64,000 nucleotides of DNA from Escherichia coli (GTDB lineage Bacteria > Pseudomonadota > Gammaproteobacteria > Enterobacterales > Enterobacteriaceae). The position numbers and the translations under genes are program-made. The DNA is taken from NCBI RefSeq assembly GCF_044647545.1, contig NZ_CP172818.1, one strand, 5' to 3'. The notes under the pieces were generated by a model. It had not been told where the DNA came from. It made no database searches and saw only the letters and a program-made list of their open reading frames with translations. Shown piece by piece: positions 3,717 through 57,653 of the stretch (position 1 is its first letter; each line of letters opens with the position of its first letter).

Positions 3717-4478
3717 ATGGTTTCATCATTCACATCTGCCCCACGCAGCGGTTTTTACTATTTTGCGCAAGGCTGGAAGCTCGTCTCGCAACCTGGGATT
3801 CGGCGTTTCGTTATTTTACCGCTGCTGGTCAATATTTTGTTGATGGGGGGCGCATTCTGGTGGCTATTTACGCAGCTCGATGTCTGGATCCCGACGCTCA
3901 TGAGTTATGTTCCGGACTGGTTACAATGGCTGAGCTATCTGTTGTGGCCTCTGGCTGTCATCTCTGTGCTGTTAGTGTTTGGCTATTTCTTCTCAACGAT
4001 TGCTAACTGGATTGCCGCTCCGTTCAATGGTTTATTGGCTGAACAACTGGAAGCACGATTGACTGGCGCTACACCGCCAGATACCGGGATTTTCGGTATC
4101 ATGAAAGATGTGCCGCGAATCATGAAACGCGAATGGCAAAAATTTGCCTGGTATCTGCCGCGCGCAATTGTATTGCTAATTCTTTACTTCATCCCTGGTA
4201 TTGGGCAAACCGTCGCGCCGGTACTATGGTTCCTGTTTAGCGCCTGGATGTTAGCCATCCAGTATTGCGATTACCCCTTCGATAACCACAAAGTGCCGTT
4301 TAAAGAGATGCGCACCGCCCTGCGCACACGCAAAATCACCAATATGCAGTTTGGTGCTTTAACCAGCCTGTTTACGATGATCCCGTTGCTTAATCTGTTC
4401 ATCATGCCCGTTGCCGTTTGTGGTGCGACGGCGATGTGGGTCGATTGCTATCGCGATAAACACGCGATGTGGCGGTAA
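3717..4478 (+). CDS. cysZ: sulfate transporter CysZ (253 aa)
   Basis: Full-length [34 protein letters not shown]...; multi-pass membrane protein; sits next to cysK. Confidence 0.95.
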
Positions 4479-9532: not shown

Positions 9533-9955
<423 letters not shown>

Positions 9956-14920: not shown

Positions 14921-14958
14921 GGGAAAAGACGAAATCCTCCCCACAAATGCAGGGAGGA
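14921..14958 (-). terminator. putative intrinsic terminator downstream of ucpA
   Basis: Stem tcctccc/gggagga (14935-14941 and 14952-14958) followed on the - strand by a T-rich run; about 13 nt past the ucpA stop, upstream of cysP. Confidence 0.45.
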
Positions 14959-14970
14959 AACAGAGGTGAA

Positions 14971-15762
14971 TCAGATGCCGACGCTAACCGTCTCCGGTAG
15001 TGTGCTGCCGCCATCAATCACATTCTGTGTACCGGTTAAATAGCTGGATTCATCCGATGCGAGGAAGGCCGCCAGTTCGCCGACTTCCAGCGGATCGGCG
15101 AGGCGACGCATCGGGATTGCTTTCGCCATTTCAGTCAGCACCGATTCTGGATCTTCCGGGTTCGACTGGCGGGCAATGCTTTCCGCCATTGGCGTGCGAA
15201 CGTATCCAGGGCAGATGGCGTTAACGCGAATACCAGACTGCGCGTACTCCACCGCCAGCGATTTAGTCAGGCCAACAATCGCCGCTTTCGTTAAGGCGTA
15301 CGCCGTTTCGCCCGGGTCTGCCACCATATCGCCAGTGACTGAAGACATCATCACAATGCGGCCATCTTTGCGGGCAATCATCTCCGGCAGCACCGCCTTC
15401 GTGACGTTCCATACGCCTTTTATATTGATATCAATATGGAAATCGCGATCTTCATCGCTCATATCGAGGAAACTGCCCAGACGACAAACGCCTGCGTTAT
15501 TCACCAGAATATCAATGCGCCCTTCTTTTTCCTTAGCGCGCTTAATAGCTGCGGCTACCGACGCCGGGTCACGCACATCGGCGACAACCGCCGTACAGCG
15601 ATGACCACGGCCACACAGTTCGTCCGCCAGCTTTTCGATCTCAGGGGAGATATCCAGCAAGATTAGGTTTGCGCCATGACGCGCAAAAGTTCTGGCAATT
15701 CCTTCGCCAATTCCCTGCAATGCGCCCGTAATCAGTGCTGTCTTGCCCGTGAGTTTACCCAT
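14971..15762 (-). CDS. ucpA: short-chain dehydrogenase/reductase UcpA (263 aa)
   Basis: ORF track 14971..15828; start taken at MGKLTGKTALITGALQGIGEGIAR (Rossmann GxxxGxG); ATG at 15760-15762 confirmed in sequence. Confidence 0.9.
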   Translation of the reverse strand: MGKLTGKTALITGALQGIGEGIARTFARHGANLILLDISPEIEKLADELCGRGHRCTAVVADVRDPASVAAAIKRAKEKEGRIDILVNNAGVCRLGSFLDMSDEDRDFHIDINIKGVWNVTKAVLPEMIARKDGRIVMMSSVTGDMVADPGETAYALTKAAIVGLTKSLAVEYAQSGIRVNAICPGYVRTPMAESIARQSNPEDPESVLTEMAKAIPMRRLADPLEVGELAAFLASDESSYLTGTQNVIDGGSTLPETVSVGI

Positions 15763-20543: not shown

Positions 20544-20579
20544 AAAAAGGCCAGTCAGTGTGTTACTGGCTGGCCTTTA
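20544..20579. terminator. bidirectional hairpin terminator between yfeW and yfeX
   Basis: aaaaaggccagtcagtgtgttactggctggccttt: stem ggccag...ctggcc flanked by an A-run and a T-run. Confidence 0.55.
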
Positions 20580-23304: not shown

Positions 23305-24174
23305 ATGAGCACTTTTAAACCACTAAAAACACTCACTTCGCGCCGCCAGGTGCTGAAAGCCGGTTTGGCTGCCCTGACGTTGTCAGGAATGTCGCAAGCC
23401 ATCGCCAAAGACGAACCTTTAAAAACCAGCAACGGACACAGCAAGCCGAAAGCCAAAAAATCTGGCGGCAAACGTGTCGTTGTTCTCGATCCAGGCCACG
23501 GCGGGATTGATACCGGAGCGATCGGACGCAACGGTTCGAAAGAAAAACATGTGGTGCTGGCGATTGCTAAAAACGTCCGTTCCATTTTGCGTAATCATGG
23601 CATTGATGCGCGTTTAACGCGTTCTGGCGATACGTTTATCCCACTATACGATCGCGTTGAAATCGCCCATAAACATGGCGCAGATCTGTTTATGTCAATT
23701 CATGCCGATGGCTTTACCAACCCGAAAGCTGCCGGTGCTTCGGTATTTGCCCTCTCTAACCGCGGTGCTAGTAGCGCAATGGCGAAATACCTGTCTGAAC
23801 GCGAAAACCGTGCTGATGAAGTTGCCGGTAAAAAGGCGACTGACAAGGATCACCTATTGCAGCAAGTGCTGTTTGATCTGGTGCAAACCGATACTATTAA
23901 AAACAGCCTGACGCTCGGCTCGCATATTCTGAAAAAGATTAAGCCGGTGCATAAACTGCACAGCCGCAACACCGAACAAGCCGCGTTTGTGGTGTTGAAA
24001 TCGCCGTCGGTTCCGTCGGTGCTGGTGGAAACCTCGTTTATCACCAACCCGGAAGAAGAGCGGCTGTTAGGCACGGCGGCGTTTCGCCAGAAAATCGCCA
24101 CAGCGATTGCCGAAGGAGTGATCAGTTATTTCCACTGGTTTGACAACCAGAAAGCACACTCGAGAAAGCGGTAA
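23305..24174 (+). CDS. amiA: N-acetylmuramoyl-L-alanine amidase AmiA (289 aa)
   Basis: MSTFKPLKTLTSRRQVLKAGLAALTLSGMSQAIA (twin-arginine signal) followed by the amidase_3 domain. Confidence 0.95.
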   Translation: MSTFKPLKTLTSRRQVLKAGLAALTLSGMSQAIAKDEPLKTSNGHSKPKAKKSGGKRVVVLDPGHGGIDTGAIGRNGSKEKHVVLAIAKNVRSILRNHGIDARLTRSGDTFIPLYDRVEIAHKHGADLFMSIHADGFTNPKAAGASVFALSNRGASSAMAKYLSERENRADEVAGKKATDKDHLLQQVLFDLVQTDTIKNSLTLGSHILKKIKPVHKLHSRNTEQAAFVVLKSPSVPSVLVETSFITNPEEERLLGTAAFRQKIATAIAEGVISYFHWFDNQKAHSRKR

Positions 24175-28270: not shown

Positions 28271-29575
28271 TCAGAAGAACAGTGACGGATCGCCCGCCCG
28301 TTTGGTCAGGCGACCGTTTGCCATAATGCCCATGCTTTCCAGCCAGCGTTCAAACTCCGGTGACGGGCGCAGATTCAGTAACTGACGCACAGTGGCAGTG
28401 TCGTGGAATGCGGTGGTCTGATAGTTGAGCATGATGTCATCACCCAGCGGCATCCCCATGATGTAGTTGCAGCCTGCGGTGGCGAGCAGGATCATCAGGT
28501 TTTCGTTGAGGTTCTGGTCAGCGTCAGCGTGGTTGGTGTAGCAGCAGTCACAGCCCATAGAGATGCCGCTCAGCTTGCCCATAAAGTGATCTTCTAAGCC
28601 CGCGCGGATAATCTGGCGGTCGTTGTAGAGATACTCCGGCCCAATAAAACCGACCACGGTGTTGACGATAAACGGATCGTAATGACGCGCCAGCCCATAG
28701 TTACGCGCTTCCATCGTCACCTGGTCAGCGCCGAAGTTAGCGCCAGCGGACAGCGCCGAACCTTGTCCGGTTTCGAAGTAGAGGCAGTTTTCCCCGGCGA
28801 TACGGTTAAACTCTGCACCCACTGCGCGCGCTTCGTCGAGCATCGCCAGCTCCACGCCAAACTCTTTCAGCCCTTTTTCGCTGCCGCAAATACTCTGGAA
28901 AATCAGCCCGCCCGGTGCGCCGCGACGAATCGCTTCGATCTGGGTGGTGACGTGCGCCAGTACGCAGCCCTGAGTTGGGATGTTGAATTTGTCGATCACG
29001 CCGTAGATGGTGTCCAGCACGCGGCTTAAGTTTTCCACGTCGTCCGTCACCGGGTTGACGCCGATCACCGCATCGCCCACCCCGAAGGAAAGCCCTTCGT
29101 AGATTTGCGCAGCGATACTTTGCACGTCGTCACGGGTGTCATTTGGCTGCAAACGGGCGCTGAAGGTGCCCGGAATACCAATAGTTGTATTGGCCTTTTT
29201 GATTACCGGCATTTTCTTCGCGCCGTAGATCAGGTCCGCGTTAGAACTGATCTTCGCCACCGCCGCGACCACTTCCGAGGTCAACCCTTTGCGAGTAAAG
29301 GCAATGTCGTCAACGCTGGTTTCGTCGCTCAGGACATACTCACGCAGTTCGCTGATGCTCCAGTTTTTAATCTGGTTGTAGGCCGTTTCGTTAACATCGT
29401 CCTGAATCAGCCGCGTCACGCAGTCATCTTCATAGGCAATCACCGGATTATTGCGGATGTCCGCTACGGTCATTTCCGACAACACCTGCTTTGCCGCCAC
29501 GCGCTCCTGTGAGCTTGCCGCAGCAACGCCCGCCAGCACATCCCCCGAACGCAGTTCGTTGGCTTTAGCCAGCAC
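28271..29575 (-). CDS. eutB: ethanolamine ammonia-lyase large subunit EutB; 5' end and start codon unresolved (coordinates are the minimal GTG-initiated ORF)
   Basis: ORF from GTG 29573-29575 gives (V/M)LAKANELRSGDVLAGVAAASSQERVAAKQVL... The same frame continues upstream without a stop and encodes FGNVYQFKDVKE, but there is no in-frame ATG/GTG/TTG before the eutA stop. See findings. Confidence 0.85.
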   Translation of the reverse strand: MLAKANELRSGDVLAGVAAASSQERVAAKQVLSEMTVADIRNNPVIAYEDDCVTRLIQDDVNETAYNQIKNWSISELREYVLSDETSVDDIAFTRKGLTSEVVAAVAKISSNADLIYGAKKMPVIKKANTTIGIPGTFSARLQPNDTRDDVQSIAAQIYEGLSFGVGDAVIGVNPVTDDVENLSRVLDTIYGVIDKFNIPTQGCVLAHVTTQIEAIRRGAPGGLIFQSICGSEKGLKEFGVELAMLDEARAVGAEFNRIAGENCLYFETGQGSALSAGANFGADQVTMEARNYGLARHYDPFIVNTVVGFIGPEYLYNDRQIIRAGLEDHFMGKLSGISMGCDCCYTNHADADQNLNENLMILLATAGCNYIMGMPLGDDIMLNYQTTAFHDTATVRQLLNLRPSPEFERWLESMGIMANGRLTKRAGDPSLFF

Positions 29576-29616
29576 CTCTTTTACATCCTTAAACTGATAT
29601 ACATTGCCGAAAGCCC

Positions 29617-31020
29617 TCAGGAAGGAAATGCGAGTGATTTCACCGTCACCGGCACAACCGATCCGCCAAAAAGAGGCGTACCAATGTCGATATAGTCCCC
29701 CGCGCGGACAATCACTTCGTCAATGACTGCCAACGGGAGTTGTTGTAGCTGTGGGCGCAACAACATGCCCAGAGCTTTACCAAAGTCCTGCCCGGCCACC
29801 ACCAGCAGGGGATGCGGATTCGGAAAACGCGCGACGAAATCGACCAACGCGTTGATGACCGTCAGTACCGCGGCGTAACGCACAGGCAGCGAGGCGGGAA
29901 GCGCCAGCACGTACGCATCAGTTTTGGGATCAAGATCCAGTTGAATCAGCGCCTGTTGCCAGGCACTCACCAGATCCTTTTCATCAATTGGGATCGCCAC
30001 CGGCAAGTTGCGCAGCGGCAGTTGTACGCCCTCCAGCCAGATTGTGCTGCCAGAGAGCGAAAGGGTATGTGCACCCGCGCCAATCACCGTGGCGCGCACG
30101 GTTTGCGCCGGAAACTGCACGTTCATCTCACGCAGGCGCGGATGGTCATGCAGCGCCGTTGCCAGAAGCGGGCCAATATCGGCAAAACAGAACGGGTCGG
30201 CGGGCTGGTGGCGATAACATTCGCCCACGCCGCCAGAAAGCGTAATGATTTCGGGCGTAACACCTGCGGGCAGCAAACCGGTTTGCATTAATGCCTGCGC
30301 GAGCGGCGAAAGCGTTCCGTCAATCACTTCGACAATCAGCTCTGCCATCCGCCGGGTAACCTGCACCAGCTGCGCGCCGGTCAGCGAACGGGCGTCGGTG
30401 CCTGCGCCGAAGCACTCATCCACAATCATCTGCCCCGGTTTATGAGCGTAAACCACGCGCCCCTGGCTGTCGGTTTCCAGCAGGCGACCGCCGACATTGA
30501 GGCAGGCGGTGCCGCTGATTTTTCCGGCATCGAACAGGGCGTAGTTCGCGGTACCACCGCCGATGTCGATATTCAGTACCCGACACAGCCGTTGTTCAGA
30601 AAGGGTTTGCGCCCCGGCACCGTGACCGGCGATCACGGATTCGAGATGCGGTCCAGCGCTGGCGACGACAAAATCGCCCAGCGACCGGGAGAGCGTCATC
30701 ACCGCCGGGCGAGCGTTGCGGTTTTTCGCGCTTTCACCGGTGATGATGATGGCACCAGAATCAACGCTTTCCGGCGCAATGCCCGCAGCCTGATATTGCT
30801 CGAGGATTAAGGTTTTCAGTTCCGCTTCTTTTAAACCACCCTGTTTATCGACAGGGGTAAAGAACACCGGGCTTTGCCAGCTAATTTCGCGTTTGATGAA
30901 TTCGTAGCGCGGCACCTGCGACACCGCCGCACGGTTAACCAGCTCCAGGTGGGAGAAAATCACCTGGGTGGTGGTGGTGCCGATATCGATACCGACGCTC
31001 AGTAGCTGGCGAGTGTTCAC
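29617..31020 (-). CDS. eutA: ethanolamine ammonia-lyase reactivating factor EutA (467 aa)
   Basis: MNTRQLLSVGIDIGTTTTQVIFS...; full length; stop TGA at 29617-29619. Confidence 0.93.
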   Translation of the reverse strand: MNTRQLLSVGIDIGTTTTQVIFSHLELVNRAAVSQVPRYEFIKREISWQSPVFFTPVDKQGGLKEAELKTLILEQYQAAGIAPESVDSGAIIITGESAKNRNARPAVMTLSRSLGDFVVASAGPHLESVIAGHGAGAQTLSEQRLCRVLNIDIGGGTANYALFDAGKISGTACLNVGGRLLETDSQGRVVYAHKPGQMIVDECFGAGTDARSLTGAQLVQVTRRMAELIVEVIDGTLSPLAQALMQTGLLPAGVTPEIITLSGGVGECYRHQPADPFCFADIGPLLATALHDHPRLREMNVQFPAQTVRATVIGAGAHTLSLSGSTIWLEGVQLPLRNLPVAIPIDEKDLVSAWQQALIQLDLDPKTDAYVLALPASLPVRYAAVLTVINALVDFVARFPNPHPLLVVAGQDFGKALGMLLRPQLQQLPLAVIDEVIVRAGDYIDIGTPLFGGSVVPVTVKSLAFPS

Positions 31021-32243: not shown

Positions 32244-32313
32244 CGCCTTTACTCCCTGTTAGTTGTTATTTATCCGGCCAACACACCCACGCGGCAAGCG
32301 TCGCATCCGGCAT

Positions 32314-39900: not shown

Positions 39901-40159
39901 TGGAGAGATATTTTATGTTAAGAAAAAAAACATACATTGTATGAATATAAACGGGAACCAATAAGTTTTGTTTATCATATTATATAGACTTCTTTAATTT
40001 TTAATAATTAGCAGAATACATATTTAATTACTGTTGTATTCTAAAAATATTTATCTTCACCCCATTTAAAATAATCTAGGATTTTATTCAGAAAATAAAA
40101 AAGACCCGAAAAAATCCTTCCCCCCCAAAGGCGCTAATTCATCCATATTAACTCAAGAC

Positions 40160-40710
40160 TTCATAGAAAATTTTCTTAACCCCCATATAGAGCCTCTCTA
40201 AGCCTATTATCCTTTTATTATCAAATCTCTAACCCATCTTTACCTATCTGCAAAAACACACACAAACCACTATTTTATTTTTTTTAAAAACGGAAAAAAG
40301 CATAAGGAAACGAAACAAATGAGAAAAATTTCAAAAAAAAAGAAAAATAGAAAAAAAATAATAAAAAAAACGAAAGCGAATACGAAAGGAAGAAAAAAAA
40401 AAACAAAAAATTTCAAATTCCCCAACCCACAGCCACAAAGCAAAACGAACAAACCTGAGGAACTTAAAGAAAAAGAGTATATGAAACTTAAACTAACACC
40501 TAGCTAACTATAGTAACCGAAGAAAGAACACAAAAAAGAAACAAAAATACAAAAAAAAACTAAACAAAAAAAAAAGAAAATCATAAAATTTTTATCTCAA
40601 CATAAAAAAAAAATTGAACAAAAAAAAAATGACCCCAAAAAAAACACCCCAAAAAACAACAAAAGGAACACAACAAAACAAACAAAAAACACCCCAACAC
40701 CACAGGAAGG
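40160..40710. repeat. unclassified adenine-rich low-complexity tract (no coding capacity)
   Basis: By manual count 39-44 A per 60 nt on the + strand across 40321-40680; at least four A10-A11 homopolymer runs (40393-40403, 40566-40575, 40604-40613, 40620-40629); a C7 run at 40120-40126; short degenerate repeats (aaaaaacaccccaa appears twice). Only low-complexity K-rich and F-rich pseudo-ORFs. Confidence 0.7.
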
Positions 40711-40728
40711 GAGAGGAATCAGCTAAAC

Positions 40729-57646: not shown

Positions 57647-57653
57647 GCTAAGG

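Follow-up and report, generated by a model that had tools for sequence, protein, structure and literature searches.

A eutB gene without its start codon in an Escherichia coli genome assembly: a probable consensus error at the eutA-eutB boundary

The window analyzed in this study, a stretch of 64,000 nucleotides from contig NZ_CP172818.1 of the Escherichia coli assembly GCF_044647545.1, contains a eutB gene in which no canonical start codon precedes the conserved N-terminal residues of the deduced protein. This observation raises the question of whether the isolate has lost the translational start of eutB or whether the sequence is faulty at this position. The loss itself is a deterministic property of the sequence as given, and what has to be decided is the correctness of that sequence and not the play of chance. 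The junction was compared with public genomes, with the remaining deletion-type differences in the window and with two further assemblies that are damaged at the same positions.

Structure of the eutA-eutB junction in the window

The eutA gene (29617..31020, minus strand) is intact, encodes 467 amino acids, ends with the stop codon TGA at 29619-29617 and shows zero differences from its counterpart in the E. coli genome IMT16316. Only 5 nt, GGGCT on the minus strand (Table 1), separate this stop codon from the TTC codon at 29611-29609 that specifies Phe8 of EutB. The first canonical start codon in the eutB frame is GTG 29575, from which an open reading frame of 434 codons (28271..29575, minus strand) extends with zero mismatches to eutB of IMT16316, and the body of the gene, corresponding to PF06751, is intact and in frame. 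Upstream of this GTG codon the frame remains open, encodes ISFLRAFGNVYQFKDVKEV and runs into the 3' end of eutA, the next in-frame stop codon being located at 29722-29720. This upstream part includes a CTG codon at 29620-29618 that overlaps the eutA stop and would give a product of 449 amino acids (28271..29620, minus strand), as well as an ATT codon at 29629-29627. The missing start codon, the 5-nt distance and the open upstream frame had been noticed in a preliminary description of the window, and all three were confirmed.

The canonical junction reads TTCCTTCCTGAGGGAACGACTTATGAAACTAAAGACCACATTGTTCGGC and that of the window TTCCTTCCTGAGGGCTTTCGGC, with a net difference of -27 nt that agrees with the earlier estimate of about 20-30 missing base pairs. 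The window sequence across the boundary contains TTCCTGAGGGCTTTCGGC and TGAGGGCTTTCGGC, with GGGCT occupying the place of the canonical GGGAACGACTTATGAAACTAAAGACCACATTG. Lost from the window are part of the ribosome-binding site in the context of the Shine-Dalgarno (SD)-like GAGGG region, the ATG and codons 1-7 (MKLKTTL) of eutB, and the canonical arrangement, an SD-like GAGGG and an ATG 11 nt 3' of the eutA stop followed by MKLKTTL, is not present. As a pure subsequence of IMT16316, the junction segment can be derived by deletions, of which at least two are needed, for instance AACGA plus ATGAAACTAAAGACCACATTGT. A single uninterrupted deletion does not account for the change: an alignment of the prefix CCTGAGGG and the suffix TTCGGC leaves the dinucleotide CT unaccounted for.

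Survey of public genomes

The canonical N-terminus of EutB, the large subunit of ethanolamine ammonia-lyase, is MKLKTTLFGNVYQFKDVKEVLAKANELRSGD in a protein of 453 amino acids; the N-terminus and length given in the preliminary description are correct and agree with chain A of PDB entry 3ABO and with RefSeq annotations. The junction is uninterrupted in approximately 4,960 of 5,426 complete E. coli genomes, nearly all at canonical length, and interrupted in about 8% of them. The junction of the window matched none of these 5,426 genomes, and exact scans of 100,044 species-representative genomes and of metagenome contigs (241 million metagenome records) likewise yielded 0 matches. A look-up of the exact 434-residue EutB product, on which PF06751 was found, retrieved 7 contigs, all of which have a junction of normal length and are affected by a different lesion or by a contig end, and a second instance of the window junction was not among them. 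The N-terminal lesions of eutB in public assemblies include a TAG at codon 7 and frameshifts in A-runs.

Deletion-type sites in the window

Compared with an IMT16316-like E. coli genome, the 64 kb of the window show 3 SNPs beyond the corrupted zones and 7 indel sites (Table 1), each of the latter being a deletion-type loss in the window.

Table 1. Sites of deletion-type differences between the window and IMT16316
Site	Position	Strand	Difference and context
Corrupted eutA/eutB junction	29612..29616	-	net -27 nt, 32 to 5 nt; point of CPZ-55 in K-12
yfeK 3' end	9949..9953	+	-9 nt, KTVPAQ* to KTL*; K-12 carries yfeS here
cysP-ucpA intergenic region	14926..14926	+	-1 nt (T); insertion point of 142 bp in K-12
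pbp4b-yfeX intergenic region	20559..20559	+	-1 nt (T); insertion point of ~155 bp in K-12
eutG/eutH intergenic REP element	32273..32289	+	shrunk from 61 nt to about 15 nt; strain-variable REP copy number
eutS upstream region and ~2-kb glycosyltransferase island	39981..40717	+	reduced by deletions
ypfH-ypfN intergenic region	57653..57653	+	-1 nt (T); K-12 has about 29 extra nt

At yfeK, eutA/eutB and eutG/eutH, the corrupted segment is in each case an exact subsequence of IMT16316, and the zone comprising the eutS upstream region and the island matches it as a subsequence at 817/820. The yfeK and eutG/eutH variants are private to the window, the former being absent from all complete genomes. 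The most conspicuous segment is an A-rich stretch of 615 nt at 40103-40717 (A331 C125 T102 G57), which is a perfect subsequence of a coding island of 1,995 nt with ~50% GC; the LCS amounted to 615/615, compared with 598 ± 1.9 and a maximum of 603 for shuffles. This junk sequence is not plausible as a biological product. All other eut genes in the window are intact, and there is therefore no sign of operon decay.

All seven sites coincide with structural differences between K-12 MG1655 and IMT16316, namely the yfeS insertion, the two intergenic insertions of 142 bp and ~155 bp, CPZ-55, an 85-bp REP duplication, the absence of the island and the ypfN/ypfH intergenic region. About 5% of the window lies within ±35 nt of the K-12 differences, and by our arithmetic the chance of all seven sites falling into this part is about 1e-9. 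Inspection by eye for methylation or phosphorothioate motifs (EcoKI, GAAC/GTTC, Dcm) as a shared cause revealed none that was common to all sites, and the similarity of the eutA/eutB junction to an ONT adapter, also judged by eye, was unconvincing.

Damage at the same positions in two further assemblies

Two RefSeq 'complete' assemblies from one study, BS-01 (NZ_CP172816.1; GCF_044647575.1) and BS-04 (NZ_CP172819.1; GCF_044648255.1), belong to a lineage that is about 3% divergent from that of the window. A literature search for this study returned nothing usable. Both assemblies are damaged at four of the window sites, the yfeK 3' end, cysP-ucpA, pbp4b-yfeX and eutA/eutB, in a deletion-only manner and each with a different outcome. 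At eutA/eutB they resemble the window in that the same ~30 nt past CCTGAG are affected by deletion-only loss and that the eutB frame is in phase with a CTG overlapping the eutA stop, whereas the retained bases are different and the net losses are 21 and 18 nt instead of 27. The PGAP annotation calls eutB from the equivalent CTG in both assemblies. Moreover, BS-01 has a frameshifted eutH gene and carries A/C-only and G/A-only junk past a tRNA-Asn gene, of the same kind as the junk in the window; its yeeJ gene is thinned by deletions, and BLAST detected a gap-riddled yeeJ remnant. When this junk was compared with K-12 yeeJ by LCS, shuffles also reached 100%, the target being more than 5 times longer.

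Origin of the altered junction

With respect to these comparisons, the absence of the ribosome-binding site, the ATG and the first seven codons of eutB very probably represents an assembly or polishing error and not a mutation. The underlying isolate would be an IMT16316-like E. coli, a lineage that we take from strain names to be ST648, with a normal eutA-eutB junction. Its consensus may have been corrected at some step against related or reference genomes, and bases would have been wrongly removed beside or inside the structural differences between those genomes and the isolate. At eutA/eutB, the CPZ-55 prophage of K-12-type genomes would provide the structural difference, and a stretch of roughly 30 nt next to this breakpoint, towards eutB, would have been thinned from 32 to 5 nt. 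As to the software, our guess is a homology-guided polisher. An error is indicated by the deletion-only difference with near-zero substitutions, by non-biological sequence elsewhere on the same contig, by the different damage at the same positions in unrelated assemblies and by the coincidence of 7/7 sites with structural differences. Several observations speak against it. The net loss is divisible by three, and eutB remains in phase with the CTG, as is also the case in BS-01 and BS-04; a random artefact would keep the frame in all three junctions in only about 1 of 27 cases. Intergenic hot spots accumulate natural indels as well, and co-location alone is therefore not proof. In addition, the dropout is base- and strand-biased, with A kept and T and G lost, a bias that such an error leaves unexplained.

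A genuine loss of 27 nt from the eutA/eutB boundary of the isolate is unlikely. The loss is present in the sequence as given and the frame is kept, an SD-like AAGGA that could serve GTG 29575 lies 10 nt upstream of it (anti-SD duplex of -6.8 kcal/mol, compared with -6.1 kcal/mol at the canonical ATG), and the other known N-terminal lesions of eutB make start-loss alleles conceivable. On the other hand, the junction is unique across all collections searched and not shared by relatives, and it is not the product of one mutational event: the change is unparsimonious as a mutation because two or more deletions, or one deletion together with filler, are needed in a lineage that is 3 SNPs from its relatives. 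Every property of the junction is common to the six other, clearly artefactual sites of the window and to BS-01 and BS-04 at the same position, and the intact state of the other eut genes gives no hint of operon decay. If the deletion were real, EutB would be absent or produced only poorly, either as a 434-residue protein from GTG 29575 that lacks residues 1-19 or by translation from CTG 29620 that is coupled to the termination of eutA. The activity of ethanolamine ammonia-lyase would decrease, and eutC-L-K-R might be expressed at a lower level because of polarity. That the loss is real and that EutB is nevertheless synthesized, by reinitiation at the CTG (CCTGA) or from GTG 29575 as an alpha subunit minus 19 N-terminal residues, is quite improbable, and the CTG has no SD sequence (+0.4 kcal/mol). 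In that case, the in-frame outcome of the three variant junctions (-27, -21 and -18 nt) would hint at selection for continued translation of EutB.

The preliminary description had named two causes, a junction artefact, which the evidence favours, and the imprecise excision of a CPZ-55-like prophage from an attachment site at eutA/eutB, which we regard as very improbable. It had correctly placed the K-12 prophage at this boundary: CPZ-55 lies directly past the eutA TGA, the lesion starts 3 nt past the insertion point, the 8-bp direct repeat CTTCCTGA that flanks the prophage and forms the attachment core ends at this TGA, and the junction is interrupted in about 8% of complete genomes. Nevertheless, no prophage-derived bases are present at the junction, neither the ATGCGG... 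nor the ...ATCGATT end, a single copy of CTTCCTGA is found compared with two in EK2009, and the empty-site sequence TGAGGG is intact. The same unoccupied canonical span is found in each of the 25 best-matching genomes, the closest relatives carry no prophage at this position, and an excision scar would leave the six other deletion-only sites and the damage in BS-01 and BS-04 unexplained. Finally, that GTG 29575 or a nearby codon is the accepted start of eutB and the junction a normal allele, the scenario by which the preliminary description would have been refuted, can practically be dismissed. Gene callers do fall back on this GTG where the N-terminus is damaged, but no reference genome has this junction and both RefSeq, with an ATG 11 nt past the eutA stop and a 453-residue product, and the solved E. 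coli structure, with a chain of 453 residues, start with MKLKTTL.

Consequences for the interpretation of the sequence

The eut operon of the isolate is most probably normal. The previously proposed consequences of the start loss, a 434-residue EutB initiated at GTG or initiation at CTG or ATT, are most likely irrelevant, since the lesion is one of a series of deletion-only corruptions spread across the window. As biology the junction matters little, and conclusions on ethanolamine use, non-canonical initiation or prophage excision are not warranted. The relevance of the data lies in sequence quality: systematic deletion-only corruption at structural differences from related genomes affects not only the window but also a minimum of two RefSeq 'complete' genomes, BS-01 and BS-04. 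Such corruption yields false calls of start loss, truncation and frameshift and erodes accessory islands to low-complexity junk, and it is masked by annotation, for example when eutB is called from a CTG. Other oddities at gene boundaries in the window should be read with this corruption in mind.

Comparison with known systems

Like the canonical E. coli eutA-eutB region and the EutB protein of the 3ABO structure, the window contains eutA, its TGA stop codon and EutB residues 8-453, whereas the spacer of 11 nt, the ATG and the first seven codons have given way to GGGCT. Reference or homologue bias in the consensus polishing of long-read bacterial assemblies is a general class of error, and the window shares with it the confinement of errors to structural differences, the erosion of accessory sequence and the dominance of deletions; a literature search found no documentation of perfect-subsequence thinning with A retention for this class. 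The CPZ-55 prophage of K-12 occupies the same nucleotide neighbourhood as the lesion, directly past the eutA TGA and within the 8-bp repeat, but the SD sequence and the ATG of eutB are intact in K-12, and the window has neither the prophage nor a remnant of it. The link between CPZ-55 and the lesion accordingly appears to be an indirect one, in which a structural polymorphism misled a homology-guided consensus step.

The eutA/eutB junction of the window

The eut operon is located on the minus strand, and the eutA stop codon is followed by GGGCT and then by TTC GGC AAT GTA TAT CAG TTT, which encodes EutB from Phe8 on. A comparison of the canonical junction TTCCTTCCTGAGGGAACGACTTATGAAACTAAAGACCACATTGTTCGGC with the window junction TTCCTTCCTGAGGGCTTTCGGC revealed a net loss that takes in the spacer, the start ATG and the first seven codons. 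The RefSeq start of eutB is an ATG 11 nt past the eutA stop. In the window, the eutB frame remains open upstream of the GTG (translation ISFLRAFGNVYQFKDVKEV) and includes CTG at 29620-29618 and ATT at 29629-29627. Re-reading of the window bore out all coordinates and sequence readings of the preliminary description at this junction, and the EutB N-terminus that it had given agrees with the 453-residue E. coli EutB chain of PDB 3ABO, which begins MKLKTTLFGNVYQFKDVKEVLAKANELRSGD. The observation of a start-less eutB in the window sequence is confirmed.

Features of the window, and K-12 MG1655/IMT16316 breakpoints in coordinates of the IMT16316 locus (L008)
Feature	Coordinates	Strand	Description
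eutA	29617..31020	-	ends ...KSLAFPS-TGA, stop 29619-29617
eutB-frame ORF	28271..29575	-	434 aa; first ATG/GTG/TTG in frame is GTG 29575-29573
yfeK 3' end	~9949 (9949-9953)		-9 nt; YfeK C-terminus ...KTVPAQ-stop to ...KTL-stop, deletion-only
cysP-ucpA intergenic	14926		one T lost
pbp4b-yfeX intergenic	20559		one T lost
eutA/eutB	29612-29616		-27 nt
eutG/eutH REP element, intergenic	32273-32289		61 nt to ~15 nt (CCGGCCAACACACCCA)
eutS upstream and island	39981-40717		~2 kb strongly thinned by deletions
ypfH-ypfN intergenic	57653		one T lost
yfeS	L008 4449/4453		present in K-12
142-bp insertion	L008 9427-9430
~155-bp insertion	L008 15049-15075
CPZ-55	L008 24146-24168
85-bp REP duplication	L008 26803-26887
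Island	L008 34487-36716		absent from K-12
ypfN/ypfH intergenic	L008 53646-53722		about +29 nt
Two further breakpoint zones	L008 42331-42403 and 29324/29328		window uncorrupted there

Occurrence of the junction in other genomes

With a query of 301 nt, the junction was spanned at a single position in 4,964 of 5,426 complete E. coli genomes, in which the matching stretch measures 328 nt, a few variants excepted. The window junction occurs in none of the 5,426, and the preliminary description's case of an identical junction with an annotated start in reference genomes was accordingly not encountered among them; neither 241 million metagenome records nor 100,044 species-representative genomes yielded a match. 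The exact 434-aa EutB product is on record for seven contigs, all with a normal-length junction plus either another lesion (TAG for TTG at codon 7, or A-run frameshifts in GTAAAAGAG) or a contig end. Independent lesions near the eutB 5' end were observed in Logan assemblies (L009-L012, L014), namely the TAG at codon 7 and an A-run shortened from A4 to A3 or lengthened to A5 in the same segment; gene callers use the same GTG (434 aa) for each, and the lesions may reflect errors in the reads or genuine pseudogenes. In EA2 (NZ_CP069710.1; L007 ~505-545), eutB contains a 36-nt tandem duplication (GTGCTGGCTAAAGCCAACGAACTGCGTTCGGGGGAT) and the annotated EutB has 465 aa.

Besides the window, deletion-type damage to the junction was detected only in BS-01 (NZ_CP172816.1) and BS-04 (NZ_CP172819.1) among the 5,426 genomes. 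These RefSeq 'complete' genomes share their origin in one Indonesian broiler study and diverge from the window by ~3%; their junctions are CCTGAGAAAGCCCTTGTTCGGC (-21 nt) and CCTGAGACAAACCACATTGTTCGGC (-18 nt), respectively, and PGAP annotated eutB in both from the CTG equivalent to that of the window. At 4.49 and 4.52 Mb, the two assemblies are unusually small.

Deletion-type losses in the window and in related assemblies

Across the full 64 kb, the best matches of the window were E. coli IMT16316 and its relatives, which we take from their strain names to be ST648. Relative to IMT16316, three substitutions were counted outside the corrupted zones, and all seven indel sites are deletion-type losses on the window side. 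The yfeK, eutA/eutB and eutG/eutH segments are exact subsequences of IMT16316, and the eutS-upstream and island zone matches as a subsequence at 817/820. The three 1-nt losses each remove a plus-strand T at a K-12 insertion point. The yfeK and eutG/eutH variants are absent from the 5,426 complete genomes; the number of REP copies between eutG and eutH differs naturally among strains, with intergenic lengths of 116, 216 or more nt. BS-01 and BS-04 were the top matches for the altered yfeK end, which lies where yfeS is located in K-12 and belongs to the same artefact class as the other sites.

The 615 nt at 40103-40717 are A-rich, low-complexity junk (A331 C125 T102 G57). They match perfectly, as a subsequence, an island of 1,995 nt and ~50% GC that is located between eutS and maeB in IMT16316-like genomes; in IMT16316 it carries two glycosyltransferase-type genes. 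Stretch and island share an LCS of 615/615, compared with 598 +/- 1.9 (max 603) for shuffles, and base retention was biased (A 65%, C 26%, T 19%, G 12%). Since no biological process gives a base-biased self-subsequence of a coding island and then exact register, the stretch is a data artefact.

BS-01 and BS-04 show deletion-only changes against IMT16316 at four of the window's sites (IMT16316 locus coordinates 4440-4452, 9426, ~15048-15069 and 24114-24144), the kept bases at shared sites differing from assembly to assembly. For the first two single-nucleotide sites, which were covered, both have the same loss as window 14926 and 1-nt losses at most ~12 nt from 20559. In BS-01, eutH is frameshifted, and A/C-only and G/A-only junk lies just past tRNA-Asn (L022 2110-2570, 3230-3370; NZ_CP172816.1 1987109-1988369), where the K-12 counterpart is the 7-kb yeeJ, present in BS-01 as a remnant riddled with gaps. 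CP4-44-like genes beside this junk are marked frameshifted or incomplete, and PGAP called a 'hypothetical protein' on it. BS-01 also has wbbL interrupted by IS5 (L022 46168-48161), a K-12 hallmark, yet lacks CPZ-55 and yfeS; reference sequence may have leaked into the assembly, or the strain may be K-12-like. The three assemblies are corrupted at common polymorphic sites, each in its own way, which indicates a systematic computational cause.

We consider it unlikely that the 27-nt deletion is real in the isolate; the only observation favouring biology is that all three variant junctions keep the frame. A single deletion cannot give the window junction, as the prefix CCTGAGGG and the suffix TTCGGC leave CT over; no fewer than two events are required, such as the loss of AACGA and of ATGAAACTAAAGACCACATTGT. 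Shine-Dalgarno energies were +0.4 kcal/mol (none) for CTG 29620 and -4.0 for ATT 29629; GTG 29575 has AAGGA 10 nt upstream (-6.8, versus -6.1 for the canonical ATG, with 11% of background positions reaching -6). The likeliest product of a real deletion would be a 434-aa EutB, poorly expressed and 19 residues short, and polarity on eutC-L-K-R would be possible from what is generally known of eut regulation.

Comparison with K-12

In K-12, CPZ-55 lies exactly after the eutA TGA, and the preliminary description was therefore right to place the lesion at the prophage boundary. The boundaries read CCTTCCTGA followed by ATGCGG (eutA side) and GATTCTTCCTGA followed by GGGAACGACTTATGAAA (eutB side), both ends carry the 8-bp repeat CTTCCTGA, and the K-12 eutB start is intact. 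The proposed interpretation is supported in part: of its two origins, the artefact is borne out by the systematic deletion-only damage, whereas imprecise excision is not supported, because the window junction contains no prophage bases, retains the empty-site bases TGAGGG with a single core copy, and corresponds to an unoccupied site of identical span in all 25 closest relatives. EK2009 (NZ_CP040663.1; L006 425-445) has K-12-like eutA and eutB alleles, no prophage and the 8-bp repeat twice (CTTCCTGACTTCCTGA), which is not the expected remnant of site-specific excision. In K-12 (L005 2150-2180, 8945-8970), the prophage end beside eutB repeats, beyond the 8-bp core, the final ~17 nt of eutA in imperfect form (TCGATTCTTCCTGA versus TCGCATTTCCTTCCTGA); this presumably represents the att site. 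The K-12 annotation also has a 126-nt 'hypothetical protein' that begins directly after the eutA stop.

The loss of the eutB start is almost certainly an artefact and not real biology, and the junction is of little interest save as a warning on this assembly class. The artefact most likely arose during consensus building or polishing with related genomes as guide, a step that would have removed bases at points where these genomes are missing sequence of the sample or fall out of alignment with it. In the alignment of K-12 MG1655 with IMT16316, all seven indel sites fall inside or at most 35 nt from a breakpoint; the breakpoint zones make up ~5% of the window, giving by our own arithmetic a chance of ~1e-9 for seven of seven, with natural indels favouring such sites too.
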